This document shows, piece after piece, positions 3,783-43,699 of a stretch of DNA of 49,625 nucleotides. The DNA is taken from assembly GCA_965371575.1 (NCBI GenBank), contig CBDUYZ010000001.1:1-49625 (forward strand), written 5' to 3'. This DNA is from an uncultured bacterium. GTDB taxonomy: Bacteria; Krumholzibacteriota; Krumholzibacteriia; LZORAL124-64-63. The notes under the pieces were generated by a model, which ran no database searches, was not told the origin of the DNA, and worked only from the letters and a program-made list of their open reading frames with translations. Within the stretch, counting starts at the first letter, position 1; each line of letters starts with the position of its first letter. The position numbers and the translations under genes are program-made.

Positions 3783-3933
3783 CTGATTCTTGGCGGGTCA
3801 GGCCCAAAGCTAGGCGATCGCCATCCTTATTGTTTGGTATTTAACAATCCTCCGGGACTGTGATAAAGTCATGATGCATATCGCGCCCCCTGCGTACAGG
3901 GCATCGACAAAAATTTGTTTCCGGAGAAAGATC

Positions 3934-5094
3934 ATGCTCATTCGCTTACGACTGTTTCGGGCAGGATTCATCACAGGCCTGCTCCTGGTCGCGGTAACGC
4001 CGGACCGGATTCCCGCCCAGATCCCCGGTACACATGACGATCCGCAGTATGGAGTCAATAGGGTGGTTACGGTCCCGTCCACACGCGGCTCCTGCGTGCA
4101 ATGTCACGATACGCATGCCATGGAGAGCGGTGCGGTGACCGGCGTGGAACCGGTCCTGTTCCGCGCCAACGAAAATGGCCTCTGCTTCGATACCTCGGGT
4201 GTTGGGGGATGTCACAACGAACCGGCTGTCAACTACCCGTTGCTCGATACGGAGTTCATGCCGGAATTCTCGCCATATCCCGGTTACCCCGAGGCCAACG
4301 CCGGCGGTGATTATACCTACGGCGTGGAAATGCGTGGACGTTGGCCGGGTTCCAGTGTCTACGAGAACAGTGGTCAGTACCTGGGCCGCGATTTCTCACC
4401 CCACTACATCGACAGCGATATGCCCCAGCAGGACAGCCAGGGCGCGGGTATGTGCCTGAACTGCCATTCTCCCCACGACACGGACAACCCGTTCGACCAG
4501 CTGACCGCAATGTACACAAACATCGGCGGACACGCCGATTTCGGCACTCCGCCGAACCAGCAGCTGTGTTTCGATTGCCACGGGCCCGACGGGCCTGCCG
4601 GCATGAACGGTTCCGGCAGGCTGATCGCCGACTATTTCGACGAGAGCGTGAATCCCGGGACGGCCGGTCACCAGATCCGGCGCAATTCCGAGATCGCCCT
4701 TTCCTGGCCGGCCTCGGTCCAGGTCGGGGACAAGCTGCCCTGCTACCTTTGTCACAATCCCCACGGCTCCCGGGGAGCCAGCGGTGCTTCTCCCAATACC
4801 TTCGTGCTCAACGACGCCCGCCCGGGTTGGGACGGCATATTGGACCCCACGGGAAGTGCCCTCGATTCCCGGGCCGTGTGTTTCGGGTGTCACATTCCGT
4901 CCGACGGTGTGCCGGGCTCGCGCGTAGTGATGGGGATCGTCATGAACACCATCCCCAGCAAGGGTGCCCATAAAACGTCCGCCGCCCAGAATTGTGCCAA
5001 AACTCACGGTGACTTATACGACACGCCTACGAGCATCAACATCCACAACATTACCACCAAATCCGCTTTGAGCCCGGAAGAATTCTGGAAATGA
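3934..5094 (+). CDS. secreted pentahaem c-type cytochrome (plus one non-canonical CX8CH candidate site)
   Basis: ATG 3934 is preceded by GGAGAAAG, and the hydrophobic leader is MLIRLRLFRAGFITGLLLVAV. CXXCH motifs: CVQCH, CLNCH, CFDCH, CYLCH, CFGCH. The extra site is CFDTSGVGGCH. The stop overlaps the next start (ATGA at 5091-5094). Confidence 0.85.
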   Translation: MLIRLRLFRAGFITGLLLVAVTPDRIPAQIPGTHDDPQYGVNRVVTVPSTRGSCVQCHDTHAMESGAVTGVEPVLFRANENGLCFDTSGVGGCHNEPAVNYPLLDTEFMPEFSPYPGYPEANAGGDYTYGVEMRGRWPGSSVYENSGQYLGRDFSPHYIDSDMPQQDSQGAGMCLNCHSPHDTDNPFDQLTAMYTNIGGHADFGTPPNQQLCFDCHGPDGPAGMNGSGRLIADYFDESVNPGTAGHQIRRNSEIALSWPASVQVGDKLPCYLCHNPHGSRGASGASPNTFVLNDARPGWDGILDPTGSALDSRAVCFGCHIPSDGVPGSRVVMGIVMNTIPSKGAHKTSAAQNCAKTHGDLYDTPTSINIHNITTKSALSPEEFWK

Positions 5095-7974: not shown

Positions 7975-8451
7975 ATGAAGGTCAAATCCTGGTTGTGGGT
8001 CCTTTTCCTGCTGACTGTGCCTGTCCCGGGTCTAGCCGAAACCGTGAAGGCTCCGGCAGTGGAATCCCCGCACGAGCCGACGACCATTACCGTGATCGTC
8101 AGGCATCGGGTGGCGGCGTCCTTTGCGGACACTCTGGAAGTCGTCTGGGGGACCGGTGAACAGTACTGGATCGGTGATACCGAATTCAGTCTGGAAATTT
8201 CACGGTTCGTTGCCGATTTCGGCATCAGCCAGACCGGAGAAGTCATCGAGCGCAGTTCTGAAGCCCACAATCCGGCCTGCGAGGTCGTGATCTACAACGA
8301 GGGCATCGAGGAGGATCGGGTCTGGGCGTTCTTCGGCACAGGGTCTCCGCATTTCCGGCGCGAGTCCATGCTGGCCGTGGACATGATCTCCTTCCCCTGG
8401 CGTGGTTCCGTGCTGACCGAGCCGATTCCCCGGAAGGATGAAGTGAAATGA
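7975..8451 (+). CDS. small secreted hypothetical protein
   Basis: Signal peptide MKVKSWLWVLFLLTVPVPGLA|ETV. No haem motif. The stop overlaps the start of the 42-haem gene (ATGA at 8448-8451). Confidence 0.55.
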   Translation: MKVKSWLWVLFLLTVPVPGLAETVKAPAVESPHEPTTITVIVRHRVAASFADTLEVVWGTGEQYWIGDTEFSLEISRFVADFGISQTGEVIERSSEAHNPACEVVIYNEGIEEDRVWAFFGTGSPHFRRESMLAVDMISFPWRGSVLTEPIPRKDEVK

Positions 8452-11400
8452 GCCGCAGCAAGCTGGTCCGTTTCAATCCGTTCTGGCTCTCAGCCATGGT
8501 CCTACTGCTGGCCATGTCTTGCGCTGATCCAGGCCTGGCTGCCAAGAAACGACGTGAGTGTCTCGACTGCCACAAGAACATGAAGCAACTCAAGGAGTTG
8601 GCCCGGGTACATGAACCTTTCAACGAAGACAAGTGCCTTGATTGCCACCAGCGGCACGGGTTTGCCCAGAACCTGATCCTGAAGAGCGCCCCTCCGGAAT
8701 TGTGCGCCGAGTGTCACGCCGACCAGATGCCGAGCACCGAGGTGGCTTTCCCGCACGAGCCCGTCGCTCAGGGCTATTGCAACGCCTGCCACAACCCTCA
8801 TGCATCCGATAACTCGGCGCTCATCCGGGGCAGCACCCCGGGCGGCGCCTGCCTGCCCTGCCATCCGGTGGTCAAGGAAGCTCTCGACGGGGCGGCTGGC
8901 CACCAACCGTTCATGAACGGTGACTGCAGCGTTTGCCACAAGGCCCACGGCAGCGATCAGCCCGCTATTCTTGTTTCCCGACAGATCGACGTCTGCCTCG
9001 GGTGTCATGAAGGAATCGATCCGGTCAGCCACTTCCAAACCGGAGTGAACGACCAATCCTGCACCGCTTGCCACGATGCCCACCTCGCCACGAAAAACAA
9101 TATGTTGCGGAGTGATGCCCATCCGCCCTTTGCCGAAGGTGACTGTAGCGCCTGTCACCAGGCGAACGAGGGCAGAGCCCTTGAAGCACCTGCCGTCGCG
9201 GATCCCGCCCTCTGTTTCGAATGCCACGAGGAAATTGAAGACAGAACAGGGCTCCTTCATCCCCACGACCCGGCCCTCGACGGGTGCCTGGACTGCCATG
9301 ACGCCCATCGTTCGGGATTCCCCTTCCTGCTGACAGGAGCTCAGCGCGATGTTTGTCTGGACTGCCATGACGATCCTGCCAGCGGGGAAAATATCGGCGT
9401 GGTGCACGGGCCTGTCGTGGATGGTGACTGCGCGGCGTGTCACGATCCGCATGGCGGTGATCGCGATCTGATGCTCACGGCCGAGGGAGACGCCCTCTGT
9501 GCCCGGTGCCACGAGGATCTTCTGACAGCTGCCCGACAGGCGGTTGTTCCCCATGAGGCCCTGGACGACGGTTGCGCTGCCTGCCATCGGCCCCATGCTT
9601 CGACTGAGCCCGGCCTCCTGATCTTCAACCAGTTGGTGTTGTGTGGCGAGTGCCACGACGAAATCATCTCCGGCGCAGGAGACCATCAGCAACACGCGCC
9701 TTTCCAGGCCGGAGCCTGCCGGGAGTGCCACAATCCCCACGGGTCGGACCGCAGAGCCATGCTCGTCAAAACGGATCCGGCGGAAAATTGTGTGCGTTGC
9801 CACGCCGGTCTGGCCGCAGGTCTCAAGTCGGGCGAGGGCCACGTTCCATTCGCCGACGGGGATTGCGCCGACTGCCACGCGCCGCATTACTCGAGCCAGC
9901 AGCCGGGCCTTCTGGTCGAGCCGGTCAACACCCTGTGTGCCACATGCCACGATGATCTGGAGGGGAAGCTTTCCCGCCCGCATGTACATACGGCCATCCT
10001 CAGGGGCGCCTGCACAGACTGCCACGACCCGCACGACGCCGAGGCATCGCTGCTGCTCGTGGCCGAAACGGAGCTTTGTCTTGGTTGCCATCCGGACGTC
10101 GCGGCCGCCGTCGAGTTGGCGGTGGTGCATGAACCCGCCCGAGGCGGCGCCTGCCTGACCTGTCATGACCCTCACGGCTCGGATCAGCCCATGGGCCTGG
10201 CGGTCCCGGTGGCCCGACTCTGTGCCGAATGCCATTCCGTCGTCGACGAGGCGTTCGCCACCAGCCACGGCGGTCTGGCCGACGAAGACTCCCAGTGCAC
10301 GACCTGTCACAACCCGCACGGTTCCACCGATCCCATGCTGCTGAACCGGGTCATCCACTCGCCCTTCGCGGACAAGGACTGCGCTTCCTGTCACGATGAC
10401 TTCACCCTGGAGCAGTTCGCCGAGGAGACGGCCGGCCTCTGCGGCGAGTGTCACGACCAGCCCGACGAGTTCGCCGGCAAGAAACAGATTCACGCACCGG
10501 TTGCCGAGGGCGACTGTACGGTATGTCACGACCCCCACACCGCCCGCGGGGACCTGCTCCTGCGTGCGGATGTACCGGAGCTGTGCGCCGAGTGCCATGA
10601 CGACATCGTTAATCCCACATCCGGCGTCAAACAGCACCGCCCGGTGGAACTGGGCGGATGTCTGGACTGTCACGAATCGCACGCGGGCGATTTCCGCTCC
10701 CTGCTCAGGGATTCAGGCGACAACCTGTGCCTGGGCTGCCATGACGCGCTGAAACAACGCCTGGAAACCGGGGTCCGCCACGACCCTGTGGCCGAGGGCG
10801 ATTGTACGGCCTGCCACAACGGGCATGATTCGGCTGAGGCTGCTCTGCTCAACAAGCGCGTGCACCTGCTGTGCGCCGACTGTCACGAAGTGGCAGGTGA
10901 GGACATCATGAGCGCACACAGCGGCTTCGAGGTGGAGGGGACCGACTGCGTGACATGCCACGATCCCCATGTGTCGACCGATGACAGGGGCAAGTTCCTG
11001 CGGACCGTCAGGCACGATCCGTTCGCCGACGGCGATTGTTCATCCTGCCACGTACCGGGTAGTATTCGTGTTTCCCTGCCGGTGCCTCAGCTCTGCCTGG
11101 AATGCCACGACGAGTTCGCGGAAATCCTGGAGTCCGAGGGGCTCCACGCGGCCCTGAAGAACGAGAAATCCTGCATATCCTGTCATGCTCCCCACGCAGG
11201 TTTCGCGGGGCTGATCAACCGTTCGTCACAGAAGGAGACCTGCCTGCGTTGCCACGATCGCCAGGGCTACGAGGGCGAGTTCCGGCACGAGCCGGTCGAG
11301 GAGGCCTGTACGAATTGCCACGATCCTCACGCCGGTGAGAAGCCGTTTTTGCTGACCCTCGACATCATGGAGCTCTGCCTGCAGTGCCACGAAGTCCATC

Positions 11401-11564
11401 TCCATCCCGTGGGTGAGGAATACCAGGATCCCCGTACCGGCGGTCCGTTGACCTGCGTCAGCTGCCATACGCCCCATTCTGCGGCCGAGAAGTACCTGCT
11501 GTCCCATGAGAAGTCGCGCGCCCTGTGTGTCCAGTGCCACGTGGGCACCATGGGACCTCATTGA
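8448..11564 (+). CDS. giant multihaem c-type cytochrome, 42 CXXCH motifs (tandem paired-CXXCH / c7-like units)
   Basis: I counted 42 CXXCH motifs in the 1038-aa translation. They lie in about 21 repeats of ~48 aa with the pattern C..CH-(D/N)PH...L-C..CH.....H.P...G(D)-C..CH. The N-terminal leader ends LLAMS|C, a possible lipobox. Confidence 0.95.
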   Translation: MSRSKLVRFNPFWLSAMVLLLAMSCADPGLAAKKRRECLDCHKNMKQLKELARVHEPFNEDKCLDCHQRHGFAQNLILKSAPPELCAECHADQMPSTEVAFPHEPVAQGYCNACHNPHASDNSALIRGSTPGGACLPCHPVVKEALDGAAGHQPFMNGDCSVCHKAHGSDQPAILVSRQIDVCLGCHEGIDPVSHFQTGVNDQSCTACHDAHLATKNNMLRSDAHPPFAEGDCSACHQANEGRALEAPAVADPALCFECHEEIEDRTGLLHPHDPALDGCLDCHDAHRSGFPFLLTGAQRDVCLDCHDDPASGENIGVVHGPVVDGDCAACHDPHGGDRDLMLTAEGDALCARCHEDLLTAARQAVVPHEALDDGCAACHRPHASTEPGLLIFNQLVLCGECHDEIISGAGDHQQHAPFQAGACRECHNPHGSDRRAMLVKTDPAENCVRCHAGLAAGLKSGEGHVPFADGDCADCHAPHYSSQQPGLLVEPVNTLCATCHDDLEGKLSRPHVHTAILRGACTDCHDPHDAEASLLLVAETELCLGCHPDVAAAVELAVVHEPARGGACLTCHDPHGSDQPMGLAVPVARLCAECHSVVDEAFATSHGGLADEDSQCTTCHNPHGSTDPMLLNRVIHSPFADKDCASCHDDFTLEQFAEETAGLCGECHDQPDEFAGKKQIHAPVAEGDCTVCHDPHTARGDLLLRADVPELCAECHDDIVNPTSGVKQHRPVELGGCLDCHESHAGDFRSLLRDSGDNLCLGCHDALKQRLETGVRHDPVAEGDCTACHNGHDSAEAALLNKRVHLLCADCHEVAGEDIMSAHSGFEVEGTDCVTCHDPHVSTDDRGKFLRTVRHDPFADGDCSSCHVPGSIRVSLPVPQLCLECHDEFAEILESEGLHAALKNEKSCISCHAPHAGFAGLINRSSQKETCLRCHDRQGYEGEFRHEPVEEACTNCHDPHAGEKPFLLTLDIMELCLQCHEVHLHPVGEEYQDPRTGGPLTCVSCHTPHSAAEKYLLSHEKSRALCVQCHVGTMGPH

Positions 11565-26109: not shown

Positions 26110-26787
26110 ATGGTTCTTAGGAAATTCATGGGTATTTTCGCAATTACCCTGATTATTGGTGCCGCTTCACTCGCCATGGCGGGTGTTCCGGACGTGGAGA
26201 ATTGCACTTCTTCCCGGGCCTACACTGGTCCTGAGAAGTTGATGTTACTGGTTGTGCCTGGTGGCTTTGCTGACGCAACGTTCGAGACAGCCTGGGTCTT
26301 TATCACTCCTAATGGAAGTGCTCAGCCTCAGGTAACCCAAGACGCCACCATCTCGGTGACGGTCAAGGATGGCGCGCTTCCGGTCCCCCAGATCATCGAA
26401 TTATATCCCTTCGAGGATATTTGGTTGGTCTGCCCCGGTGTGGGTGCCGAACTCGGACTTATGCCTTGTGCCGGCGGCAACAGCGCAGATTTCGCCACCG
26501 ATGAAATTGGCTATACTGAGTTCAATAACCCGGTGACGGGTGGCGGACAAAGTACCGGAGCCACATCGGTTGTTATCAACGGCAACGCCCTGCCCAACAC
26601 CGTAGACGTCGGCTACCTCAGCCCTGATATTAATGGCGATGGACTTGTGGATCTCGTCGATTTTCAGCAATTCGTGGTTGACTTCACAGGGACGTACAAT
26701 TTCCAAAGCGATTACTTCTACGACGGAGTCGTGGACCTGATCGACTTCCAGAAATTTGCATCCTGGTTCGCATGGGGCTGCATCTAG
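26110..26787 (+). CDS. secreted protein with C-terminal dockerin-like duplicated Ca-binding repeat
   Basis: GGAGG RBS and signal peptide ...IIGAASLAMA|G. The C-terminus carries two related segments, DINGDGLVDLVDFQQFVVDF and DYFYDGVVDLIDFQKFASWF, which fit the dockerin/EF-hand-like D.N.DG..D..D pattern. Codon usage is AT-richer than in neighbouring genes. Confidence 0.6.
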   Translation: MVLRKFMGIFAITLIIGAASLAMAGVPDVENCTSSRAYTGPEKLMLLVVPGGFADATFETAWVFITPNGSAQPQVTQDATISVTVKDGALPVPQIIELYPFEDIWLVCPGVGAELGLMPCAGGNSADFATDEIGYTEFNNPVTGGGQSTGATSVVINGNALPNTVDVGYLSPDINGDGLVDLVDFQQFVVDFTGTYNFQSDYFYDGVVDLIDFQKFASWFAWGCI

Positions 26788-26954: not shown

Positions 26955-27551
26955 ATGAAGAAGTTGTTAGTAATTTTGATGGCAAGTCTGATCGCAACCT
27001 CGGCTTTCGCAGTCATTGATCCTGATCCTAGTTCGATTGGGATCTACTTCGACGAAACCGCCGATGTGAATTGCTTGGATTTTGTCGGTGGGGCGTTGAA
27101 CATATACGTCGTTTGGACCTCACCCCTCATTCCTGCGTTTTTAGGCTATGAGTTTGGGTATTTCATGGACATCGAAGCAGGTGCGTCAATTTTCATGTCA
27201 CAAACCCTTCTGTTCAACGGAGTGACTGAGGGCTTTGACATATTTTCCGGTCAAACAGAGGTAGAGGGTAGTCATGCTGTGGTGTGCGTCGACCCTGTGC
27301 CGACTGGGCCAGCTACGATTATCCATGCGTGGGTGTACCAGATTTTCTCCCCTGGCTACATGAAATGTTTCATCTTCCAGAGCGAGACAATGGGCGGTAC
27401 ATTGCCGCAGGTTCTGGGCACGGAAGAAGATCTGCATCAGCTCAATCAGTCGACCGGCGGCTGGGATGTTCCCGTCGCTACGCTGAACACTAGTTGTGTT
27501 GTGGATAATGAGGAAGCCAGCTTCGGCAGCGTGAAGAGCTTGTTCCGGTAA
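26955..27551 (+). CDS. secreted hypothetical protein, paralogue A, with SFGSVKSLFR C-terminal tail (possible cohesin-like beta-sandwich)
   Basis: AAGGAG RBS and signal peptide MKKLLVILMASLIATSAFA. It shares the blocks IGIYFD / LGYEF and the extreme C-terminal motif with the 29849 gene. Confidence 0.7.
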   Translation: MKKLLVILMASLIATSAFAVIDPDPSSIGIYFDETADVNCLDFVGGALNIYVVWTSPLIPAFLGYEFGYFMDIEAGASIFMSQTLLFNGVTEGFDIFSGQTEVEGSHAVVCVDPVPTGPATIIHAWVYQIFSPGYMKCFIFQSETMGGTLPQVLGTEEDLHQLNQSTGGWDVPVATLNTSCVVDNEEASFGSVKSLFR

Positions 27552-27611
27552 ACACCGGTGTGAGTTGCAGCTTCAGCTGCTGGATCTAGATGGGCCGTAA
27601 ATGGTCCAGGG

Positions 27612-27647
27612 ACCCGGGTGGAATTTCCACCCGGGTTTTTTGTTTTG
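27612..27647 (+). terminator. intrinsic terminator of paralogue A (also the group II intron insertion site)
   Basis: Perfect 11-bp stem ACCCGGGTGGA / TCCACCCGGGT with a 3-nt loop, followed by TTTTTTGTTTTG. The intron 5' GTGCG starts at 27648. Confidence 0.85.
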
Positions 27648-29533
27648 GTGCGCCCGGCAGGGCGCACACTCTTGGAGGTGCAAGTCCTCTACAGACCCGA
27701 CAGGGGGAACTGTTAGCTTAACGGCAAGGGCTGCCACCGCGAGGTGGGGTCTGAAGGAAGCCGCAGGCAAAGCACTGGCCCGACGAACAGGAATCGCATA
27801 CGAGGCGGTCGTGCTGGGTAAGGAGTCCAATCTCTCCAAAGCCCAATACCTGTACGGAAAGCACGGACGTATATGCGGCGGGCATAAGTGTGAAGGAGTG
27901 TGCGCATTACCCGGGGAGATCTGTCGATTTGCCTTGTGCTAGGTCCGTCGAGAGGCGGTCCGATGGATCGACAGAAGTCAGCCGAGGGCATATTAGGTCG
28001 TTCGATCCGACTGAAGGCCCGAACATGAACATGGAGCAGGAGACCTGACTCTCGATGGCTAACCAAGACACAGACCGTTCGGCTGGGATGCCGGGCACCA
28101 CTCCGGAAGGTAGCGGGCGGAACCCGCGAGAGCATGGGGCTGGGGTGTCGGTTGCTGCGATGAGTTGGGACCATTTCCGCTCGGAGACAACGCAACTTAT
28201 GGATGCGGTGATCGAACGCGAGAACATGATCGAGGCCTTGCGCCGAGTGGAACGGAACAAGGGAGCGGCCGGGGTCGACAAGATGCCGGTCAGCGAACTT
28301 CGCCCTTACCTGAAGGAGCATTGGTCTCGGATCAAGGAAGAGTTGCTGGTTGGCAGCCATCAGCCGTCGGCGGTACGGGAAGTCATGATCCCGAAGCCCG
28401 GCGGCAGAGGGGTGCGCAAGCTTGGCATCCCAACGGTGGTTGACCGTCTGATCCAGCAAGCTCTGCATCAAGTGTTGAGTCCGATCTTTGACCCCTTCTT
28501 CAGTGAACACAGCTACGGGTTCCGCCCCGGTCGCAGCGCACATCAGGCCGTGCTTCAGGCACGGCAGTATGTGTCCGCTGGACGACGGTGGACCGTGGAC
28601 ATGGATCTGGAGAAGTTCTTCGACAACGTGAACCACGACCTCTTGATGTCGCGGGTCGGTCGAAGAGTTGGAGATCGGCGGGTCCTTGCGATGATCCGTC
28701 GTTACTTGCAGGCTGGTACGATGGCCGGAGGCGCTGAGTCTCCACGACAGGAAGGCACGCCGCAAGGTGGCCCCCTGTCGCCGCTGCTGTCGAACATCCT
28801 GCTGGACGATCTGGACAAGGAACTGGAGAGACGTGGCCATGCGTTTTGTCGTTACGCCGATGACTGCAACATCTATGTGCGGTCCCGGCGGGCGGGCAAG
28901 CGGGTGCTATCGTCACTCACCAGCTACCTGAAGGAAGAGTTGAAGTTGAAGGTGAACCGAGCCAAGAGCGCGGTGGATCGACCGTGGCAGCGCAAGTTCC
29001 TCGGCTACTCGATGACCTCACATAAGCAGCCGCGACTGAAAGTCGCTCCGGCCAGTGTGCAACGTCTGAAAGACAAGCTGAGGGTCGAGTTCCGCCGGGG
29101 CCGTGGCCGCAATCTGGGCCGGTTTATCACCGAAGACCTGCAACCACTTCTGAAGGGTTGGATCAACTACTTCCGGTTGGTGGAGGTTAAGAGAATCTTC
29201 GAGGAACTGGATGGCTGGATCCGTAGAAAACTGCGGAACATCCTCTGGCGACAATGGAAGAGGAATTGGACCCGAGCCCGGAAACTGATGCAATTTGGGT
29301 TGGACGAGGCTCGCGCGAAGCGCTCATCCACCAACGGGCGGGGCCCGTGGTGGAACTCCGGGGCTTCGCATATGAACCAAGCCATCTCGAAGGACTTCCT
29401 TGATCGTCTTGGTCTTGTGAATCTGCTGAATGAGTTACGTAGACTTCAATATGTGTCATGAACCGCCGTGGTACGTGAACCGTTTGCCCGGTGGTGTGGG
29501 AGGGTGAGGTCGCAAGGCCACACCCTACCCGAT
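27648..29533 (+). mobile_element. group II intron (bacterial class C-like), about 1.9 kb
   Basis: The 5' end is GUGCG at 27648, with an RT/maturase ORF inside. After the ORF stop there is a domain V-like hairpin at 29463-29494. Its positions 2-4 are CGC with a G.U wobble at the middle G, and it has a 2-nt bulge on the 3' strand. A domain VI-like hairpin follows at 29498-29529 with a GCAA loop and an unpaired A at 29527. The proposed 3' end is ...GAU at 29533, uncertain by about 10 nt. Confidence 0.8.
28055..29461 (+). CDS. group II intron reverse transcriptase/maturase (no endonuclease domain evident)
   Basis: RT blocks: RVERNKGAAGVDK, IPKPGGRGVRKLGIPTVVDRLIQQA, SYGFRPGRSAHQA, DLEKFFDNVNHD, GTPQGGPLSPLLSNILLDDLD, and RYADDCNIYV (YADD). 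The maturase X region is FLGY...GWINYFR. The real start may be ATG 28160 (MSWDHF..., 433 aa). Confidence 0.92.
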   Translation: MANQDTDRSAGMPGTTPEGSGRNPREHGAGVSVAAMSWDHFRSETTQLMDAVIERENMIEALRRVERNKGAAGVDKMPVSELRPYLKEHWSRIKEELLVGSHQPSAVREVMIPKPGGRGVRKLGIPTVVDRLIQQALHQVLSPIFDPFFSEHSYGFRPGRSAHQAVLQARQYVSAGRRWTVDMDLEKFFDNVNHDLLMSRVGRRVGDRRVLAMIRRYLQAGTMAGGAESPRQEGTPQGGPLSPLLSNILLDDLDKELERRGHAFCRYADDCNIYVRSRRAGKRVLSSLTSYLKEELKLKVNRAKSAVDRPWQRKFLGYSMTSHKQPRLKVAPASVQRLKDKLRVEFRRGRGRNLGRFITEDLQPLLKGWINYFRLVEVKRIFEELDGWIRRKLRNILWRQWKRNWTRARKLMQFGLDEARAKRSSTNGRGPWWNSGASHMNQAISKDFLDRLGLVNLLNELRRLQYVS

Positions 29534-29848
29534 CCCCGACTGACCACGCAGAAAAAGCCCGCTTGCCAGCCTTTGTCCACTCTTGACAGACTTGAAGATT
29601 GTCCTGATATTCAATCAGGTTCTGTATTCAGCCTGCTAGCGGTCAATAAAAATCGACTTGGACCGAAAAGAGTGCTTGTCGGTCCGGAAGAGACTCTGTA
29701 TCTTCTAGCTGTTGTCGCTGAAGGCGTTCCCAGTTGACCATATGAGGGACCCGGCATGACGGATCGTCCTGTGGTCGGGTTTTGATTTTGCAGGAACGCC
29801 AGATGTCCCAGAGCAGGAAAACGGATTTTCCAGAAAGGGGAATCGAAA

Positions 29849-30487
29849 ATGAAAAAGTTGTTTTTTGCTGTTTCTGCGTTAGCCGCGCTTTCTCTGTTGG
29901 TCCCCAGCGCGGGTTTTGCCCAGCATGAGTTCTCCAACCAGGTTGGCCTCTACCTGACCCCCGACGGTTTCGGAGAGACCGGCACCATGACAGTGGGTGA
30001 CGAGGTGTTCGTGTTCCTGGTTCTGACCCGGCCGACCGACGTACTGAACGGCGAGTTGCCCTATGAAGACATCCTCGGTTTCGAGTTAAGGTTGTACTTC
30101 AGCGACCCCACGGTCCTGTTCAAGAGCACTACATTCTTTCCGACCGGCGCCATGGTTATCGGTGGCGACGAAACCTGGGACGACGGCTACCTGGAATATT
30201 ACGTGGTGATGGCCGACGATTTCCCCGTGACCGAGGAATCGGTCGTATTGATCAAATTCGGATTCGTAGCCTTTTCAGCAAATCCGGTCCTGGTCACCCT
30301 GGGGCCGACTATTACTAACCCCGCTGTTGAGGGTCAGATGACATTTATGGCGGTCAGCCCCGATCTGCGCGCCATGTACCCGTCCAGCGGTTCCTTTGAC
30401 GATCCCGTGTTCACCTTCAACGTCGAGGGCGGCGCCGTGCCAACCGAAAACGAGTCCTTCGGATCGGTCAAGGCCCTGTTTCGGTAG
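29849..30487 (+). CDS. secreted hypothetical protein, paralogue B, with SFGSVKALFR C-terminal tail (possible cohesin-like beta-sandwich)
   Basis: Signal peptide MKKLFFAVSALAALSLLVPSAGFA|Q. The blocks VGLYL, VFVFLVL, ILGFELRLYFSDPTVLF and VVLIKFGFVA resemble the cohesin-type pattern (i.gf.f.l.yd..vl). The tail is TENESFGSVKALFR*. Confidence 0.7.
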   Translation: MKKLFFAVSALAALSLLVPSAGFAQHEFSNQVGLYLTPDGFGETGTMTVGDEVFVFLVLTRPTDVLNGELPYEDILGFELRLYFSDPTVLFKSTTFFPTGAMVIGGDETWDDGYLEYYVVMADDFPVTEESVVLIKFGFVAFSANPVLVTLGPTITNPAVEGQMTFMAVSPDLRAMYPSSGSFDDPVFTFNVEGGAVPTENESFGSVKALFR

Positions 30488-30605: not shown

Positions 30606-30634
30606 TTGACCCGGATCCCATTCGGTCCTATAAT
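30606..30634 (+). promoter_or_regulatory. near-consensus sigma70 promoter of the C25 peptidase gene
   Basis: TTGACC (30606-11), an exactly 17-nt spacer, then TATAAT (30629-34). This argues against the TTG 30606 and ATG 30633 ORF starts. Confidence 0.6.
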
Positions 30635-30704
30635 GAAAGTACGCCCAACCGCGCCGTACCTGCCCCTGATCGGCCAATCAGCAACTTCTGTCCGGGAGAC
30701 CAGA

Positions 30705-33700
30705 ATGGATGGTTTCGTGTATCGTCTGACCACGTTGGCTCGCACCACCTCCTTCCATAGCCTGAAGTGGTCAATTCGTCGGCTGATCTTCTTGGGGCTG
30801 TTCGCGCTGGGCCTTTCTCTGCCCGCTGCCGTTTCGGTCGCCGCGGATGCCCCGGGAAACGGCGCGGCGGGGATCTCCGTCGTTGCGAGCGGGCCGGACG
30901 CGCTGCGTTTTTCTGTCCTGGGGCTCGAGCCCGTCTGGACGCCACGTATCATCGGGGACCCGGCCGTTACGCTGTACGAGGTGAGCATGGGGGGCTTCGT
31001 GACTTCCGGCGCGCCGGGCCATCCCCTCCTGCCTCGGACCGGTGGCTGGGTCGTGGTGCCCCCGGGAACGCGGCCGGAACTGAAGATCATCGAAGAGCAG
31101 TGGAAGCCAGCGGGTGACCGTCCCTTGATGGTGGCAGGCGTGCCGGTCATCATCCAGGGTGCCGAATCCCGGGAAAACTTCGCGTCCGAGATCCTCGTGC
31201 TGCCCGGCGAGGATCCCCCCCCCGGAGCCGCCATCCCGGCAGGGGCTCTGGAAGCCCTGGCCCGCCGCGGGAGGGCCTCAGCCTCCGTGGCTGTGACCCT
31301 GGGCAAGGTGGCCTGGTGGCGCGGACGGCGCATCGTATCCTACCAGTTGGTTCCCCTTCACCACGACGCCGCCGGTAGGGCTGGGCAGGCACTGGCGGGT
31401 GGTATCTGGGAAATCCGTTTTGTGCCCGACGTCTCCGCCGGCCGGACCATCAAGCCGGCTCACGCCGGTAAATCCTCCACCCGCAACGACGACAGGTTCG
31501 GCGGCATCTTCCTGAACGGAGAGCTGCTGACTCAATTGCCCACGGAAGCGGCGTGGCAGGGAGTCGATATCTCCTCTTTGGAGGATGCGGACAAATCCGA
31601 CCTGGACAAGGTGAGAGGCGGACAGGCCGGGACCCTGCTGGGACCTGAAACGCGGCTTGCCGTCTGGAAGACCGGACTCGTCAGGGTGACCTATGATCGA
31701 CTGAATTCACGAGGGCTACTGCCCACCGGTGCGATCCGCGAGGATCAGATCCGGCTCTATCAACGCCGTTACATTGCGTCCCTCGACGACGGGTCGGGAC
31801 AGGCTCCATACATGGATGTCGAGGTCCCCATCCACATGGTCGGGGAAGGGGACGATTTCGACGGCGACGATTTCTTCATCTTCCACGGCCTGCGTCCGCG
31901 GGACGACGGGCCGTATGTCGCGGACCTCGGTAACGGGCCGGAAACCATTCCCGGCTGCGGCGACGCCTGGGAGATGAACAACGAGGCCAACCTCTACTGG
32001 CTGGCCGCCAGCGAGGCTGAACCGGGGCAGCCCTGGGCCCGCATGGCCACAACCACCCTGCCTGCGGCCACGGGCACCCCCCTGTCTGGCTATCGCCGCA
32101 GCGATCACATCGAGGAACAGCTGGCTTTCCGTGAGAATCTGCCCGAGGTCCAGGCCGATCGCGTCTACTACAACACTGAACGTGCGACGGATGTTCGGGC
32201 GGGTATCAATCCCCTGTGGGCGCCGGATCCGGTCGGATCCGCCGTGGACATCAAGCTCGGTATTGTGGGCAAGTACACCGGGGGTGTGCCTCTGCGCTTC
32301 GAACTGATTACTGACTCGAGCCTGACCACGCACTTGGAAGACTATATCCTGTCCAGTAATTACGAGGTGGTGCGAAGCTACGTCGTTCCCGCTTCGGCCA
32401 TCGCAGGAGATTTCGCCGAAATCCGCATGTACGACCACGTCTATTTTCGCGACCCGGTTGAAGGCTTCCTGAATTGGGTTGAAATCTCCTACGATGCCCT
32501 CTACATGGCGACCAGAGACAAGATCACCTTCCACTGCGGCGATAGTCCCGGGCTGCGGCCGGTGGAAGTGACCGGTTTCACTTCCGCGGACATCGGCTTG
32601 GTCGAAGTCACGGATCCGCGGCAACCGGTGCTGGTGGAACTCGGCGGGGCCAATATCACGACGTCCGATGACGTGACCTGGACCCTGTCGGTGATGCCGG
32701 ACCAGTCCGGGCCGATCCGCTCCTTCGCCGCCGTGGGAGACTTTACTTCCGACGGCGTGGACGAATTCCCCTCCCACCTGTCGTCCGCGGTTCCTGACCC
32801 GACCAACCCCACCGATCTGGCGGGGCCGGCCCCCGATCTGATCGTTATAACGCATCCGACTTTCCGGGCCGCGCTGGAACGGTGGCTGGAGCACCGCCGA
32901 AGCCGGGCCGGCGGGAACCTCAACGTCCACGTGGTGGATGTGGAGGACCTTTTCGACTGGTACAGCGGTGGGCTGAAGGATCCCTGGGCCCTCAAGCGCT
33001 TCGTGACCCACGCCATCATCCACTGGAACAGCTGGGTCCTGACGGTGGTGGGGGACGCGAACGAAAACGTCCTGGAAAAGGGGGTGCTGCCTGCGGCCCG
33101 CGCCTGGGGCAAGGACTGGGTACCGACCCATTACCACGTGCAAAAGGCGCTCGCCTACACGCCTGAACTGATGGCCTCGGACAAATGGTACGTCACCCTG
33201 GAATCGGGCATGAATTACCCGGAAGACGTGTTCCCCGACGACGTGACAGCCCCCTGGGACATGTACACCGGCCGGTTCCCCTGCAACTCGGTGGCCGAGC
33301 TGGACATAATGATCGACAAGGTCATGACGGTGGAAAATGTGCAGGCCGGACAGGATTGGCGCCGGAAGGGCATCTTCTTTGCCGATGACCGGTGGTCAAA
33401 CGGGTACGGGGCGGATTCCTACGACGTACTGGACTACAAGGATTACGAAAAAGTGTTCGCGGTGAGCGAACGGGATTCCCTGTCCCGGCTGTGGCGCAGC
33501 GGTTCACCGGTGGTTCTGGACAGCGTCCTGGTGCTGCTGGGAGACACCCTGGATCCGGAATACCCCCCGCCGCCCGCTTCCCGTGATTTGAGCGAAACCA
33601 GGACTTTCACGGGCGCCGCCGCCACTCCGATCCTGCTGGCCAAACTCAGCGAAGGAGGTCTGGTGGCCCATTACCAGGGTCACGCCAATCCCTACGTGCT

Positions 33701-35153
33701 GTCCTCGGAATACTGGCTGGAGGACCGGAACGACGCCGTGGGGCGCCAGGATGTCGCCAAGATCGGCAACACCGACAAACCATGGTTTTTCATGGGGTTG
33801 GGTTGTCATATCGCTGACTGGGCACAGAACACCGTGCTCACCAGTACCCGGTCGCATGAACGATCCATCTCCGAAAAATTTCTTTTAAGATCGCGGGCAG
33901 GCGCCTCGGCCACCTATGCCAGTTCGGGTTACGAATACATCACCGAGAACAGGGAGTTCGGGGAATACATCTTCCTGCGCTGGATGGTCAATCCTCCCGT
34001 CCAGCGCTCCGTCGGTGCCCCGGCAACGGTGCGCAGCCGCTGGGTCCTGGGCGAGTTGATGTGGGCGGCCGAGTCAGATATCTTAGCGGCGAACACAAGT
34101 CCGACCTTCGGTGCGGATAAGACAATCCGGGAAATGGTTTCCCAGTACGTCATTCTGGGCGATCCCCTGATGGGGCTGGATGCGGGCGAGGCGCAGGTCA
34201 CCGCCACTCTCGTCGGTTCCCCGGACCAGGAGATCACCGGCGAGGCCGAAATCTTCGCCACCGATGAGACCAACCTGCGGACCGTCACCCTGACGGCCAG
34301 GGACGAGGCGGGCATCGACCACATCAAGGTGATGGACTCCACCGGTCAGGATCTGACCACGGGCATCGTCACCGAGAGCCTGCCGCCCGGCGCGACCGAT
34401 CACCAAGTTGTTGACTACAGCCTGCAGGTGCCGGTGCGGCCTTTCGATCACGACCTGACGGTCATGGTCTGGGACACCGGGGGGCCCCTGGAATCCGATC
34501 GGCATTACGAACTCGTTCTGAAGATGCCCCAGACCGCAGTGTTTTCGACAAGCGGCAATGCCATCGATCCGGCGACTTTCATCTTCCCGGCCGACACGCC
34601 GCTCCGCTTCAACGGCCAGGTCACCAGCGCGGCCTGGCTGCTGGATTACGACCCGAACGCCGACTTCGCCCTGACCAGCGAGACCCTTATCCTGACGGAC
34701 ATCGAGTTCCTGCTGGCCAAGAACCAGCATCTGACGGTGGATTTCACGGCCACGTCAGCGACGGAGAACGCGGACGACGAGCATACCGTAGTGCTGACCA
34801 TCGACGGCTACCCGACTGATCTGGTGCTCCAGGCGGGCATCGGGGCAGCCATCAGTCAGACCATCGGCAAGGTATACAATTTCCCGAACCCCATGCGTGA
34901 GAGCACCCGATTCGTGTTCGAAAGCGGACTTAACAACGGGTCCGGTACCATCCGGGTCTTCTCGGTCGCCGGTCGCCCCGTGGCCCGCATCCATTTCCGG
35001 TTCACCGGCGGCGGGTCGGGGGTCGTGGACTGGGACGGGAGGGACAGCGCCGGGGATGAGATGGGCAACGGAACCTATCTGTACCGGGTGGAGATCGACA
35101 CCGACGAAGGGCTCGTCGTCAGCGACATGCAGCGGCTGGTGATGATGCGTTGA
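30705..35153 (+). CDS. very large secreted peptidase C25 (gingipain/PorU-like) family protein with FlgD-Ig / T9SS-type C-terminal domain
   Basis: The leader ends ...LIFLGLFALGLSLPAAVSVAADA. The C25-type core includes PDLIVITHPTFRAALERWLEHRRS.G..V.VV.VEDLFDWYSGGLKDPWALKRF, VLTVVGDAN, YTGRFPC, a His context HYQGHANPY and a Cys context FFMGLGCHIADW. The last ~90 aa match the FlgD-Ig / T9SS CTD pattern: VYNFPNPMRESTRFVF...IRVFSVAGRPVA...DWDGRDSAGDEMGNGTYLYRVEI. Confidence 0.7.
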   Translation: MDGFVYRLTTLARTTSFHSLKWSIRRLIFLGLFALGLSLPAAVSVAADAPGNGAAGISVVASGPDALRFSVLGLEPVWTPRIIGDPAVTLYEVSMGGFVTSGAPGHPLLPRTGGWVVVPPGTRPELKIIEEQWKPAGDRPLMVAGVPVIIQGAESRENFASEILVLPGEDPPPGAAIPAGALEALARRGRASASVAVTLGKVAWWRGRRIVSYQLVPLHHDAAGRAGQALAGGIWEIRFVPDVSAGRTIKPAHAGKSSTRNDDRFGGIFLNGELLTQLPTEAAWQGVDISSLEDADKSDLDKVRGGQAGTLLGPETRLAVWKTGLVRVTYDRLNSRGLLPTGAIREDQIRLYQRRYIASLDDGSGQAPYMDVEVPIHMVGEGDDFDGDDFFIFHGLRPRDDGPYVADLGNGPETIPGCGDAWEMNNEANLYWLAASEAEPGQPWARMATTTLPAATGTPLSGYRRSDHIEEQLAFRENLPEVQADRVYYNTERATDVRAGINPLWAPDPVGSAVDIKLGIVGKYTGGVPLRFELITDSSLTTHLEDYILSSNYEVVRSYVVPASAIAGDFAEIRMYDHVYFRDPVEGFLNWVEISYDALYMATRDKITFHCGDSPGLRPVEVTGFTSADIGLVEVTDPRQPVLVELGGANITTSDDVTWTLSVMPDQSGPIRSFAAVGDFTSDGVDEFPSHLSSAVPDPTNPTDLAGPAPDLIVITHPTFRAALERWLEHRRSRAGGNLNVHVVDVEDLFDWYSGGLKDPWALKRFVTHAIIHWNSWVLTVVGDANENVLEKGVLPAARAWGKDWVPTHYHVQKALAYTPELMASDKWYVTLESGMNYPEDVFPDDVTAPWDMYTGRFPCNSVAELDIMIDKVMTVENVQAGQDWRRKGIFFADDRWSNGYGADSYDVLDYKDYEKVFAVSERDSLSRLWRSGSPVVLDSVLVLLGDTLDPEYPPPPASRDLSETRTFTGAAATPILLAKLSEGGLVAHYQGHANPYVLSSEYWLEDRNDAVGRQDVAKIGNTDKPWFFMGLGCHIADWAQNTVLTSTRSHERSISEKFLLRSRAGASATYASSGYEYITENREFGEYIFLRWMVNPPVQRSVGAPATVRSRWVLGELMWAAESDILAANTSPTFGADKTIREMVSQYVILGDPLMGLDAGEAQVTATLVGSPDQEITGEAEIFATDETNLRTVTLTARDEAGIDHIKVMDSTGQDLTTGIVTESLPPGATDHQVVDYSLQVPVRPFDHDLTVMVWDTGGPLESDRHYELVLKMPQTAVFSTSGNAIDPATFIFPADTPLRFNGQVTSAAWLLDYDPNADFALTSETLILTDIEFLLAKNQHLTVDFTATSATENADDEHTVVLTIDGYPTDLVLQAGIGAAISQTIGKVYNFPNPMRESTRFVFESGLNNGSGTIRVFSVAGRPVARIHFRFTGGGSGVVDWDGRDSAGDEMGNGTYLYRVEIDTDEGLVVSDMQRLVMMR

Positions 35154-42054: not shown

Positions 42055-42768
42055 TTGGCCGATCCGTCGCACAAGAATGCAGGGGAGAGGCATACCCGGC
42101 CCCTGGCCGTGGTCCTGGCCAGCGGCGGCCTTGACTCGACCGTGTGTCTGGCCGAGGCGGTGCGCCGGTTCGAGGTCGCCCTTCTGCACATCAACTACGG
42201 TCAGCGCACCGAAGCCAGGGAGCTGCGGGCCTTCCGGGATCTGGCGGACCATTACGGAATCACCCGGCGGCTGGTGGCGGACATCTCCTATCTCAAGAAA
42301 ATCGGTGGTTCCTCCCTGGTGGACGACCGGCTGCGGGTGGAGACGGGTCTGCCGGCCGGAGATGGGACGATACCCTCGACCTATGTCCCCTTTCGGAACG
42401 CCCACATACTGTGCGTTGGGGTTTCCTGGGCCGAGATCATCGGTGCCGAGGCGCTGTTCATCGGGGTGGTGGAGGAGGACAGCAGCGGCTATCCCGACTG
42501 CCGCGAGGAATTCTACCGTTTATTCGGCGCGGTCGTCGATGCGGGAACCAGACCCGAAACGAACATCACCATCCGGACCCCGTTGATCAGGCTGGACAAG
42601 GCGGCCATCGTTCGCCGGGGCGTCGAACTGGATGTGCCCCTGCACCTTACCTGGTCCTGCTACACCGACTCCGAGGAAGCCTGTGGCGTTTGCGAGAGCT
42701 GCCGGCTGCGCCTGCGCGGGTTCGCCCAGGCCGGCTTGAAGGATCCTATTCCATACCGTCGTTCGTAG
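42055..42768 (+). CDS. queC: 7-cyano-7-deazaguanine synthase
   Basis: The only plausible start is TTG 42055, directly after the queE stop. Motifs: AVVLASGGLDS (PP-loop), YGQR, YVPFRN, and the C-terminal zinc site WSCY....CGVCESCRLR. Confidence 0.85.
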   Translation: MADPSHKNAGERHTRPLAVVLASGGLDSTVCLAEAVRRFEVALLHINYGQRTEARELRAFRDLADHYGITRRLVADISYLKKIGGSSLVDDRLRVETGLPAGDGTIPSTYVPFRNAHILCVGVSWAEIIGAEALFIGVVEEDSSGYPDCREEFYRLFGAVVDAGTRPETNITIRTPLIRLDKAAIVRRGVELDVPLHLTWSCYTDSEEACGVCESCRLRLRGFAQAGLKDPIPYRRS

Positions 42769-43699
42769 CGAAGCTGGAAAAATCGTAATCCTGATAAGCG
42801 TTGCAGCGACTGCACAGATTCAGCAGATCACGCCGACCGTCATCCAGTGTGGCCCGCATGCACTGCACGGCGTAGCTCTCCCAGATCTCCCCCACCGACT
42901 GGTCGTTGACGTTGCCGATGACCGCCCGCTCATGGACGTCCCAGCAGCAGATTGTTGCGTTGCCGTTGGTGTAGAAGAACATCTCGTCCAGGATCTTGAG
43001 ACAGGGCTTGAGCACCACGTCTTCGCGTTTTTGTCCGGTCCAGGGCCACTGATACATGGCGGTAATCAGGACCTCGTTGCAAAGGGGACCCCAATAATCC
43101 CGGTAGGCTTCCACCTCGTGCTTGTTTTCGGGAACCTCGATCATGCGTAGCTCGGTGAACACCTTGTCCCGGTAGCCGCCTTCGTCCCACAACTCGAGGA
43201 AGCGCCGGGTTCTTTCCATCACTTTGGTGAAATCGATGCCTATGCGCGAAGGCTCATAGGTTTCGCGACTGAACCCGTCGATGGAAAAACGCATGATGTC
43301 CACGCCGGCTTCCAGCAGTTCGACGGACAGTTTCTCGGTCATGAGTTCGCCGTTGGTGTTGAATTCCACCCGGGCGGTGGGATCATTGTCCTTGATGTAG
43401 CGTACGATCTCGGGCATACGGTTGTCCACGAACGGTTCGTTGGTCAGGAACGGCCGGTAGGTGATCCCCCAGCCGCGGGTGTCTGCGACGATCTTCCGCC
43501 AGGTCTCGGTCGGCATGCGCGCGGGATCCCGCACAATCTCGTTCTGGGGACAGAAGGGGCACTTGGCGTTACACTTGGTCACGGTTTCCATCTGGATGAA
43601 CTTGGGCTTCGCGGTGTAGGGCATATGCCACCGCGCACCCGCCTCGTTGCTGGACAGCGGATCTTTGGTGGGAAGTTGGTCTGCCTGTTCCGGTCGCAT
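42746..43699 (-). CDS. radical SAM / SPASM-domain protein
   Basis: ATG 43699 lies 7 nt after GGAGG. The cluster motif is METVTKCNAKCPFCPQ (CX3CX2C). The Cys-rich C-terminal region is CLKILDEMFFYTNGNATICCWD...LCSRCNAY (SPASM/twitch-like). It is the last gene of the minus-strand GT9-waaA operon, and its 3' end overlaps queC convergently by 23 nt. Confidence 0.75.
   Translation of the reverse strand: MRPEQADQLPTKDPLSSNEAGARWHMPYTAKPKFIQMETVTKCNAKCPFCPQNEIVRDPARMPTETWRKIVADTRGWGITYRPFLTNEPFVDNRMPEIVRYIKDNDPTARVEFNTNGELMTEKLSVELLEAGVDIMRFSIDGFSRETYEPSRIGIDFTKVMERTRRFLELWDEGGYRDKVFTELRMIEVPENKHEVEAYRDYWGPLCNEVLITAMYQWPWTGQKREDVVLKPCLKILDEMFFYTNGNATICCWDVHERAVIGNVNDQSVGEIWESYAVQCMRATLDDGRRDLLNLCSRCNAYQDYDFSSFATNDGME

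Follow-up and report, generated by a model that had tools for sequence, protein, structure and literature searches.

A short conserved C-terminal tag on exported proteins of Krumholzibacteriota and allied uncultured bacteria, a candidate sorting signal

This work describes a short, conserved C-terminal tail found on exported proteins of uncultured bacteria, starting from two neighboring genes, here called A and B, in a stretch of DNA from a member of the Krumholzibacteriota (GenBank assembly GCA_965371575.1, contig CBDUYZ010000001.1). The whole stretch analyzed, 49,625 nucleotides of the forward strand, is referred to here as the window. A and B encode small secreted proteins of identical architecture and lie between a gene for a dockerin-like protein and a gene for a C25-family cysteine peptidase (Table 1). 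The end of open reading frame (ORF) A, at positions 27510-27551, reads GAG GAA GCC AGC TTC GGC AGC GTG AAG AGC TTG TTC CGG TAA and encodes EEASFGSVKSLFR ahead of the stop; the end of ORF B, at positions 30446-30487, reads GAA AAC GAG TCC TTC GGA TCG GTC AAG GCC CTG TTT CGG TAG and encodes ENESFGSVKALFR. Seen over a longer stretch, the two C termini are NEEASFGSVKSLFR and TENESFGSVKALFR, closing in ASFGSVKSLFR and ESFGSVKALFR, respectively, with nine of the final ten residues identical. Six of the nine identical residues are specified by different codons (Ser, AGC/TCC; Gly, GGC/GGA; Ser, AGC/TCG; Val, GTG/GTC; Leu, TTG/CTG; Phe, TTC/TTT). The similarity is therefore held at the level of the peptide and not of the DNA, and, given the codon differences, neither gene conversion nor a repeat in the DNA was accepted as the source of the common tail. 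A first-pass annotation of the window had pointed to both the common tail and the selection on the peptide, and both observations hold; its coordinates for the tails were also right, although its peptide strings began, trivially, one codon ahead of them. No other tail of this kind appears when the window is translated in all six frames, and a degenerate DNA pattern for the tail gave 2 matches in the window and 0 in 100 shuffles.

TABLE 1 Features at and around genes A and B in the window (tag boundaries were taken from a logo of 124 tails)
Feature	Position	Strand	Description
Dockerin-like upstream neighbor	26110..26787	+	225-aa secreted protein, without tag; two dockerin-like calcium-loop repeats at C terminus
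Gene A	26955..27551	+	198-aa secreted protein: signal peptide, cohesin-like β-sandwich, C-terminal tag
Signal peptide of A	26955..27011	+	MKKLLVILMASLIATSAFA
Tag of A	27498..27548	+	last 17 residues, VVDNEEASFGSVKSLFR; stop codon 27549-27551
Group II intron between A and B	27733..29461	+	RNA domains and reverse transcriptase/maturase ORF 28055-29461; positions span these parts
Gene B	29849..30487	+	212-aa secreted paralog of A, identical architecture
Signal peptide of B	29849..29920	+	MKKLFFAVSALAALSLLVPSAGFA
Tag of B	30434..30484	+	last 17 residues, AVPTENESFGSVKALFR; stop codon 30485-30487
PorU-like C25 cysteine peptidase	30606..35153	+	1515 aa from TTG start, 1482 aa from ATG at 30705; own FlgD-type, type IX secretion system-like C-terminal domain

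BLASTP aligned A with B over no more than the last 46 residues (43% identity, E = 5e-8), and to that extent the description of the two proteins as otherwise diverged stands. Their bodies are not unrelated, however, since profile-profile comparison with hhalign detected homology between families A and B along the entire protein (probability 99.95%, E = 1e-37). As judged from these alignments, A and B are remote paralogs of one ∼200-residue family, with bodies that have diverged yet are related. Database searches retrieved 75 homologs of A (∼200 residues), nearly all with the end [ED]xSFGSVKSLFR, and 124 homologs of B (∼210 residues), with the end E[ST][FW]G.VKAL[YF]R. Nearly all of these proteins are 195 to 230 residues in length, and their sources are metagenomes and metagenome-assembled genomes (MAGs) named Candidatus Krumholzibacteriota. 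The tail is present at the end of nearly all of the ∼195 homologs listed, and in the two family alignments the frequency of the majority residue is 0.81 to 0.87 in the tail versus 0.51 to 0.53 in the body. Neither A nor B gave a Pfam or NCBIfam match at E ≤ 0.1.

The AlphaFold2 model of A (predicted local distance difference test [pLDDT] score, 85.5) is a confident β-sandwich in which the tail, residues 185 to 198, falls below a pLDDT of 50; for B (pLDDT 89.4), the tail, residues 201 to 212, scores ∼50. In both paralogs the tail is drawn as a short helix, unpacked from the body. Docking of the tail in cis was considered and rejected, given that the tail is packed on the body in neither model. 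When the B model was compared with the PDB using Foldseek, ranks 1 to 29 were all cohesin modules, with 4fl4_B as the best match (E = 4.3e-7, probability 1.0; TMt 0.55-0.67). By these matches, the bodies of A and B have a cohesin-like fold; solved cohesins are nine-stranded jelly-roll β-sandwiches. They are not members of the Pfam Cohesin family, for which no match was found at E ≤ 0.1, and the likeness is at the level of the fold only.

In both families, conservation of the signal peptide also far exceeds that of the mature body (frequency of the majority residue, 0.81 versus 0.53 for A and 0.78 versus 0.51 for B). The signal peptides are about as conserved as the tag, which is unusual for Sec signal peptides, and this conservation suggests that the signal peptide may have an extra role or may be retained.

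A joint profile of A and B matched 2393 cluster representatives. Among the best 150 of these, the small (∼200-residue) proteins carry the tail at their end in 103 of 111 cases. The 19 large proteins (830 to 1845 residues) contain two to four copies of the module each. In the large proteins, the profile match ends at approximately position 189 to 197 of 208, ahead of the tail, and 17 of the 19 end in a FlgD-type C-terminal domain (CTD) resembling that of type IX secretion systems (T9SS). Because these multimodule proteins carry the module without the tail, the tail is not part of the domain. It follows from this finding, together with the detachment of the tail in the AlphaFold2 models, that the final strand of the cohesin-like fold is not formed by the tail. 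Large scaffold-like proteins (P0196, P0205, P0210, and P0225; loci L125 to L132) have cohesin-like modules interleaved with ASH/HYDIN-type immunoglobulin (Ig) modules, followed by the FlgD-type CTD. In L125, the gene directly upstream of the scaffold gene encodes a 358-residue protein with a variant of the tag, TSWGIMKNRYR, at its C terminus.

A and B are not alone in carrying the tail. A single genome from each GTDB species was searched with a DNA pattern for E-x-x-[ST]-[FW]-G-x-V-K-x-[LM]-[YF]-R-stop, which carries ∼39 bits by our estimate, with few chance matches expected in 1.2e12 positions. The scan yielded at least 120 loci in ∼78 MAGs; all locus counts given here refer to the 120 matches listed. 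By label, these loci belong to Krumholzibacteri* (28 loci), "Fibrobacteraceae" or Fibrobacter sp. MAGs (22), Eisenbacteria (16), Gemmatimonad* (7), Latescibacteria (3, from one genome), and Zixibacteria (1), and 41 are unclassified. None of the listed loci is labeled Bacteroidota, and a Reyranella-labeled bin is the sole proteobacterial one. The remaining 2 loci (L049 and L078), in bins labeled Verrucomicrobia and Reyranella (Alphaproteobacteria), are probably misbinned. FlgD-type CTD genes are among their neighbors, and misbinning thus looks more likely than a true presence of the tag in those phyla.

The listed loci contain at least 128 ORFs with the tag at the end, encoding proteins of 150 to 560 residues. 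After removal of the tag, 117 carrier bodies fell into 60 BLASTP clusters, and the largest tagged family is the cohesin-like one typified by A and B (18 to 21 of 117). Pfam matches among the 117 carriers include Beta_helix (8), LTD (4), Chlam_PMP (3), CHRD (2), PPC (2), NosD, NHL, and CBM_4_9, and most carriers have no match. The tag is, as observed, portable between unrelated folds. Its consensus, P-V-[AP]-[TV]-E-x-x-[ST]-[WF]-G-x-V-K-[AS]-L-[YF]-R-COOH, spans ∼17 residues, and several of the conserved positions were not imposed by the search pattern (P/V at -16, V at -15, A/P at -14, T/V/N at -13, and A/S at -3). Position -4 is invariably Lys, >95% of sequences end in Arg, and ∼40% of carriers have a Cys at -17 to -19. 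Among 21 further matches to the motif in the listed loci, which were not selected by the pattern, the stop codon follows immediately in 17, and 1 to 5 extra residues intervene in the other 4; none of the 21 is internal. The A and B families, which were collected by whole-protein search, also retain the tail. A protein search with a 42-residue C-terminal alignment of diverse carriers returned 18 candidates and no match.

A signal-peptide-like N terminus is present in 106 of the 117 carriers and a lipobox-like motif in 5, both figures coming from a crude heuristic. Tag carriers are thus predicted to be Sec-exported and mostly nonlipoprotein, and they come from Krumholzibacteriota, Eisenbacteria, and allied lineages of the Fibrobacteres-Chlorobi-Bacteroidetes (FCB) group. 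In all, the tail is almost certainly a modular C-terminal tag on exported proteins, as the first-pass annotation had proposed from the two genes in the window, and it now extends to at least 60 BLAST-distinct bodies. Tandem arrays of tag genes are common: L023 and L021 have four each within 8 kb, and L061 and L106 have three successive paralogs each. Two loci (L058, 2345-2461; L101, 5629-5817) have ORFs that, read from the first Met, encode 26 residues and are barely more than the tag (MTV..N.FD.VP.E.MSWG.VKSLYR). These are probably the ends of frameshifted paralogs, because an intact family member adjoins in L101.

The tag appears to be undescribed. In A, B, and the 117 carriers scanned, it lies outside every match to Pfam (2025) and NCBIfam (June 2026) models; the most-matched family in either library hits 8 of the 117 carriers, on the body and not on the tag. 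The literature, searched in full text for the tail sequences as well as for sorting signals of Krumholzibacteriota and Eisenbacteria, gave nothing relevant. In its general design, the tag resembles the signals of the LPXTG/sortase, PEP-CTERM/exosortase, GlyGly-CTERM/rhombosortase, and MYXO-CTERM systems, which are likewise short, portable C-terminal tags with a signature motif, and which, in certain lineages, sit on many secreted proteins of unrelated kinds. These anchors are borne elsewhere by families to which several tagged bodies belong: matches were found to the anchor-defined families choice-of-anchor J, P, and V, floc_PepA, ScyF PEP-CTERM (E = 2.5e-86, L120), MXAN_6652 MYXO-CTERM, and ExeM/NucH. 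The tag thus occurs on kinds of protein that elsewhere carry PEP-CTERM, MYXO-CTERM, or T9SS anchors, which could be termed anchor swapping. However, the tag does not have the tripartite organization of sortase-type signals (motif, transmembrane helix, and basic cluster). Only ∼12 residues follow its conserved Glu, including the Lys and Ser/Gly, with no hydrophobic run of transmembrane length, and its basic part is a single terminal Arg. None of the CTERM-type NCBIfam models matched the 117 carriers, and clustering of the ORFs in the listed loci gave no dedicated sorting enzyme. Nor is the tag the β-signal of an outer membrane β-barrel, which has a barrel body and a terminal aromatic residue; here, the end is Arg and the bodies are β-sandwiches, β-helices, and propellers.

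The T9SS CTD offers a closer comparison. Like the tag, it occupies the extreme C terminus of Sec-exported, surface-type cargo, and it occurs in the same genomes and gene neighborhoods: a CTD HMM (hidden Markov model) built for this work detected 49 CTD ORFs in 43 of the 120 listed loci. The CTDs in these loci end in [RKQ][KR]-φ-x-L-[VLI]-[RK]-COOH and the tag in V-K-[AS]-L-[YF]-R-COOH. Both ends are thus hydrophobic, with a terminal R or K and a conserved Lys nearby, the Lys being offset by one position. In addition, PorU-like and PorV/PorQ-like genes adjoin some tag carriers. The two differ in that the CTD is an Ig-like sandwich of 70 to 100 residues, compared with ∼17 residues in the tag, which is predicted to be disordered or helical. 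CTD signaling in the T9SS further entails PorU cleavage and linkage to anionic LPS. Neither A, B, nor any of the 117 carriers has a T9SS type A or FlgD_ig CTD as defined by TIGR04183, PF18962, and PF13860. None of the 49 CTD ORFs carries the tag and no tagged ORF in the listed loci carries a CTD; tag and FlgD-type CTD are mutually exclusive on one protein. According to a study of Porphyromonas gingivalis (PMC11285876), a C-terminal motif of the CTD with a conserved β7 Lys is required for translocation, and targeting of HBP35 was mapped to its last 22 residues.

The protein encoded downstream of B belongs to the C25 peptidases, as the first-pass annotation had stated for its 1482-residue reading from the first ATG (PF01364, E = 2.7e-49). 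Its C terminus gave weak matches to FlgD_ig (E = 1e-4) and TIGR04183. The only PDB sequence match is PorU (6za2_A), in two stretches corresponding to the start of the C25 domain and to the CTD, and 5 orthologs share the catalytic His (HYQGHAN) and Cys (GMGCHI) motifs without change. The features that mark PorU, a C25 domain with the His/Cys dyad and a retained CTD, are thus present. Since the protein scores 143.4 bits with the PorU model NF033707, against an equivalog cutoff of 420, we classify it as PorU-like and not as a proven PorU ortholog.

We then searched metagenome contigs with the C25 protein as the query, independently of the tail. Loci were counted as informative when the upstream sequence reached ∼650 nt or more and C25 identity was 47% or higher. 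Cohesin-like tagged genes were found directly upstream in 9 of 9 informative loci, and tagged A/B-like genes also directly precede the C25 gene in the MAG loci L001, L002, L004, and L030, as well as in L076 (40% identity). In the tail-seeded scan, however, only 2 of the 120 listed loci have a C25 gene, and C25 was therefore rejected as a general neighbor of tag genes. The suggested link between the tag and C25/PorU peptidases is real for the A/B pair, in which it holds at every informative C25 locus, but is not a property of the tag. Moreover, the order of genes in the conserved block is dockerin-like, A, B, C25, SpoIID, GH3, and M49, and the adjacency of A/B and C25 could be lineage synteny because the dockerin-like, SpoIID, GH3, and M49 genes are also part of the block. 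In the dockerin-like protein, the two repeats read as DINGDGLVDLVDF and YDGVVDLIDF, with weak support from NF041540 (dockerin_GC, 15.6 bits, under the cutoff). Its orthologs lie upstream of A in at least eight other loci (L001, L004, L133, L137 to L139, L142, and L143). Together with A and B, it would form a possible cohesin-dockerin pair in a Gram-negative lineage.

On sequence grounds, the tag probably directs exported proteins to the cell surface or holds them there. More specifically, we consider the chances about even that it is a sorting or anchoring signal used in place of the CTD and read at the free C terminus, with T9SS-like attachment machinery as the most plausible reader. After export by Sec, an envelope receptor would recognize the free C terminus, including the invariant Lys at -4 and the terminal Arg, and the protein would then be sorted to the cell surface or held there, making the tag a substitute for the CTD. 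In the window, A and B represent the cohesin-fold part of the tagged set and lie in a conserved block with a dockerin-like protein and a PorU-like peptidase. The most speculative parts of the model concern the reader, which might consist of PorV/PorQ-family barrels plus a PorU-like C25 peptidase; the tag itself, which might be a minimal counterpart of the essential C-terminal β7 motif of the CTD; and the conserved PVAxE linker, a candidate cleavage site.

Clustering of all ORFs of at least 90 residues in the 120 listed loci gave as recurrent neighbors ABC ATPases, TPR proteins, kinases, an Mg-chelatase-like ATPase, and a sulfatase, none of them above the expectation from abundance, and the sole suggestive family is PorV/PorQ. 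Barrels of this family (NF033709, 142 to 202 bits, cutoff of 90) are encoded beside tag genes in 6 listed loci, and in L071 the order is CTD protein, PorV/Q, CTD protein, and tagged protein. The operon in L071 (92-7068; similar in L042, L061, and L112) encodes a 1109-residue CTD protein, the PorV/PorQ barrel (3418-4476 in L071), a 580-residue CTD protein without a family match, and then one to three tagged paralogs of a VDLGxVV family.

Several points weigh against the proposal that T9SS-like machinery reads the tag. Clustering of the ORFs in the listed loci gave no recurrent candidate for a receptor or processing gene. The neighborhood counts (C25, 2/120; PorV/Q, 6/120; CTD, 43/120) are raw and have no matched background, and a single orthologous operon accounts for four of the six PorV/Q cases. 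SpoIID, GH3, and M49 travel with the A/B-C25 block, which may thus reflect plain synteny. According to PMC11285876, the T9SS signal requires a folded Ig-like sandwich, which the tag does not have. AlphaFold2 gives the tag as a short helix and not a strand, and its conserved Lys is one position off that of the CTD end. Finally, all tag carriers are uncultured MAGs.

Alternatively, the tag could be a minimal dockerin-like or donor-strand-like ligand that inserts in trans into cohesin-fold modules, which we consider unlikely. Tagged enzymes and adhesins would then load onto CTD-anchored multicohesin scaffolds, with A and B as adaptors or head-to-tail polymers, and maturation of the assembly would fall to the C25 peptidase, much as type V pilins are matured by gingipains. 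This idea draws on the cohesin fold of A and B, which head the largest tagged family; on the occurrence, in the same lineages, of proteins with two to four modules and a CTD but no tag; on tag genes lying within 8 kb of 3 of 5 scaffold loci, and directly upstream of the scaffold gene in L125; and on the predicted flexibility of a tag that is not docked in cis. The scaffold sample is tiny, though (5 loci, without a background), the dockerin-like protein encoded beside A and B is a more obvious cohesin ligand, and cohesin-dockerin binding normally requires a folded calcium-binding module of ∼70 residues. Extended to a complete cellulosome- or pilus-like surface assembly in Gram-negative FCB phyla, in which CTD-bearing multicohesin scaffolds would anchor, the PorU-like peptidase would mature, and A and B would serve as adaptor or polymerizing subunits, the proposal becomes slightly less likely still.

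Known assemblies supply both likenesses and differences in this regard. As in cohesin-dockerin cellulosomes, a cohesin fold (A and B) is encoded beside a dockerin-like protein, multicohesin scaffold-like proteins occur in the same lineages, and, as in anchoring scaffoldins (cohesin plus SLH), A and B combine a cohesin module with a putative C-terminal anchor. Here, however, the lineages are Gram-negative members of the FCB group, no Pfam cohesin or dockerin match reaches family thresholds, and a 17-residue tail would take the place of SLH domains or a sortase signal. Type V (FimA/Mfa1) pilins are matured by C25 gingipains. A and B are similar to them in being small paralogous β-sandwich subunits encoded beside a C25-family peptidase, with a conserved C-terminal segment that could act in trans. 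They differ in having type I signal peptides (that is, they are not lipoproteins) and a fold that is cohesin-like and not FimA-like.

It is very improbable, in our assessment, that the tag is instead a periplasmic tether, its invariant Lys being cross-linked to, or binding, peptidoglycan or another envelope polymer, such that the proteins would be envelope-resident and not surface-exposed. There is a precedent in Braun's lipoprotein (Lpp), whose C-terminal Lys, in the ending YRK, cross-links to peptidoglycan. The tag has the invariant Lys at -4 and a basic, aromatic end (Y/F-R), and the block in the window is flanked by the peptidoglycan enzymes YceG/MltG, SpoIID, and GH3, but the Lys is not terminal, L,D-transpeptidase genes are not recurrent near tag genes in the listed loci, and the cargo (β-helix, LTD, PPC, choice-of-anchor, and cohesin-like) is typical of extracellular proteins. 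We judge about as improbable a role in quality control, in which the free C terminus would be a ligand of a PDZ protease or chaperone (DegS/Prc/Ctp type) or of an assembly factor and would set turnover or folding rather than location. A strict extreme C-terminal position and a short, flexible tag would suit such a role, but a degradation tag would not be expected to replace the CTD precisely on one module family or to appear on families that elsewhere bear sorting anchors, and no PDZ protease recurs near tag genes in the listed loci. Barely credible, lastly, is the view that nothing is portable, so that the tail would be just a structural end conserved within a single superfamily and the closeness of C25 a matter of lineage synteny: the homology of A and B and a synteny that reaches housekeeping genes agree with it, but it is already contradicted by the tag's presence in 60 BLAST clusters and on Pfam-distinct folds (β-helix, LTD, CHRD, PPC, and NHL propeller), by its unpacked state in the AlphaFold2 models, and by modules that exist without it.

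New envelope machinery has repeatedly been found by way of short C-terminal sorting tags (LPXTG, PEP-CTERM, and the T9SS CTD), which also make secretomes readable from sequence alone. Across at least five little-known uncultured phyla (Krumholzibacteriota, Eisenbacteria, Gemmatimonadota, Latescibacteria, and MAGs labeled Fibrobacteraceae), whose cell-surface biology is essentially uncharted, the tag described here singles out an extensive and coherent group of exported proteins. With an HMM of the tag, hypothetical proteins numbering in the hundreds to thousands would at once be annotated as cargo of the envelope or surface, and phylogenetic profiling of the partner machinery would gain a handle. 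If T9SS-like components do read the tag, the view that a folded CTD is required would be challenged; if, on the other hand, the tag docks onto cohesin-like modules, a new principle of surface assembly would follow.

The window has other features of note. The group II intron between A and B is supported by matches to RF02001 (147 bits, 27733-27904), RF01998 (59.5 bits, 27939-28019), and the reverse transcriptase/maturase model TIGR04416 (407 bits). It starts ∼90 nt past a strong terminator-like hairpin (27608-27640, a 15-bp stem plus T-run), does not occur at the syntenic loci L001, L002, and L004, and is not part of the tag system. A radical-SAM gene at 42746-43699 was considered as a WgkB Trp-Lys cross-linking maturase and rejected, as its score of 36 bits against a cutoff of 650 reflects generic radical-SAM similarity. 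The window also encodes two multiheme c-type cytochromes (3871-5094 and 8448-11564), the larger of which has ∼20 paired-CXXCH stretches and matches DmsE/GSU2203-type decaheme families; their presence suggests that this organism may be capable of extracellular electron transfer.

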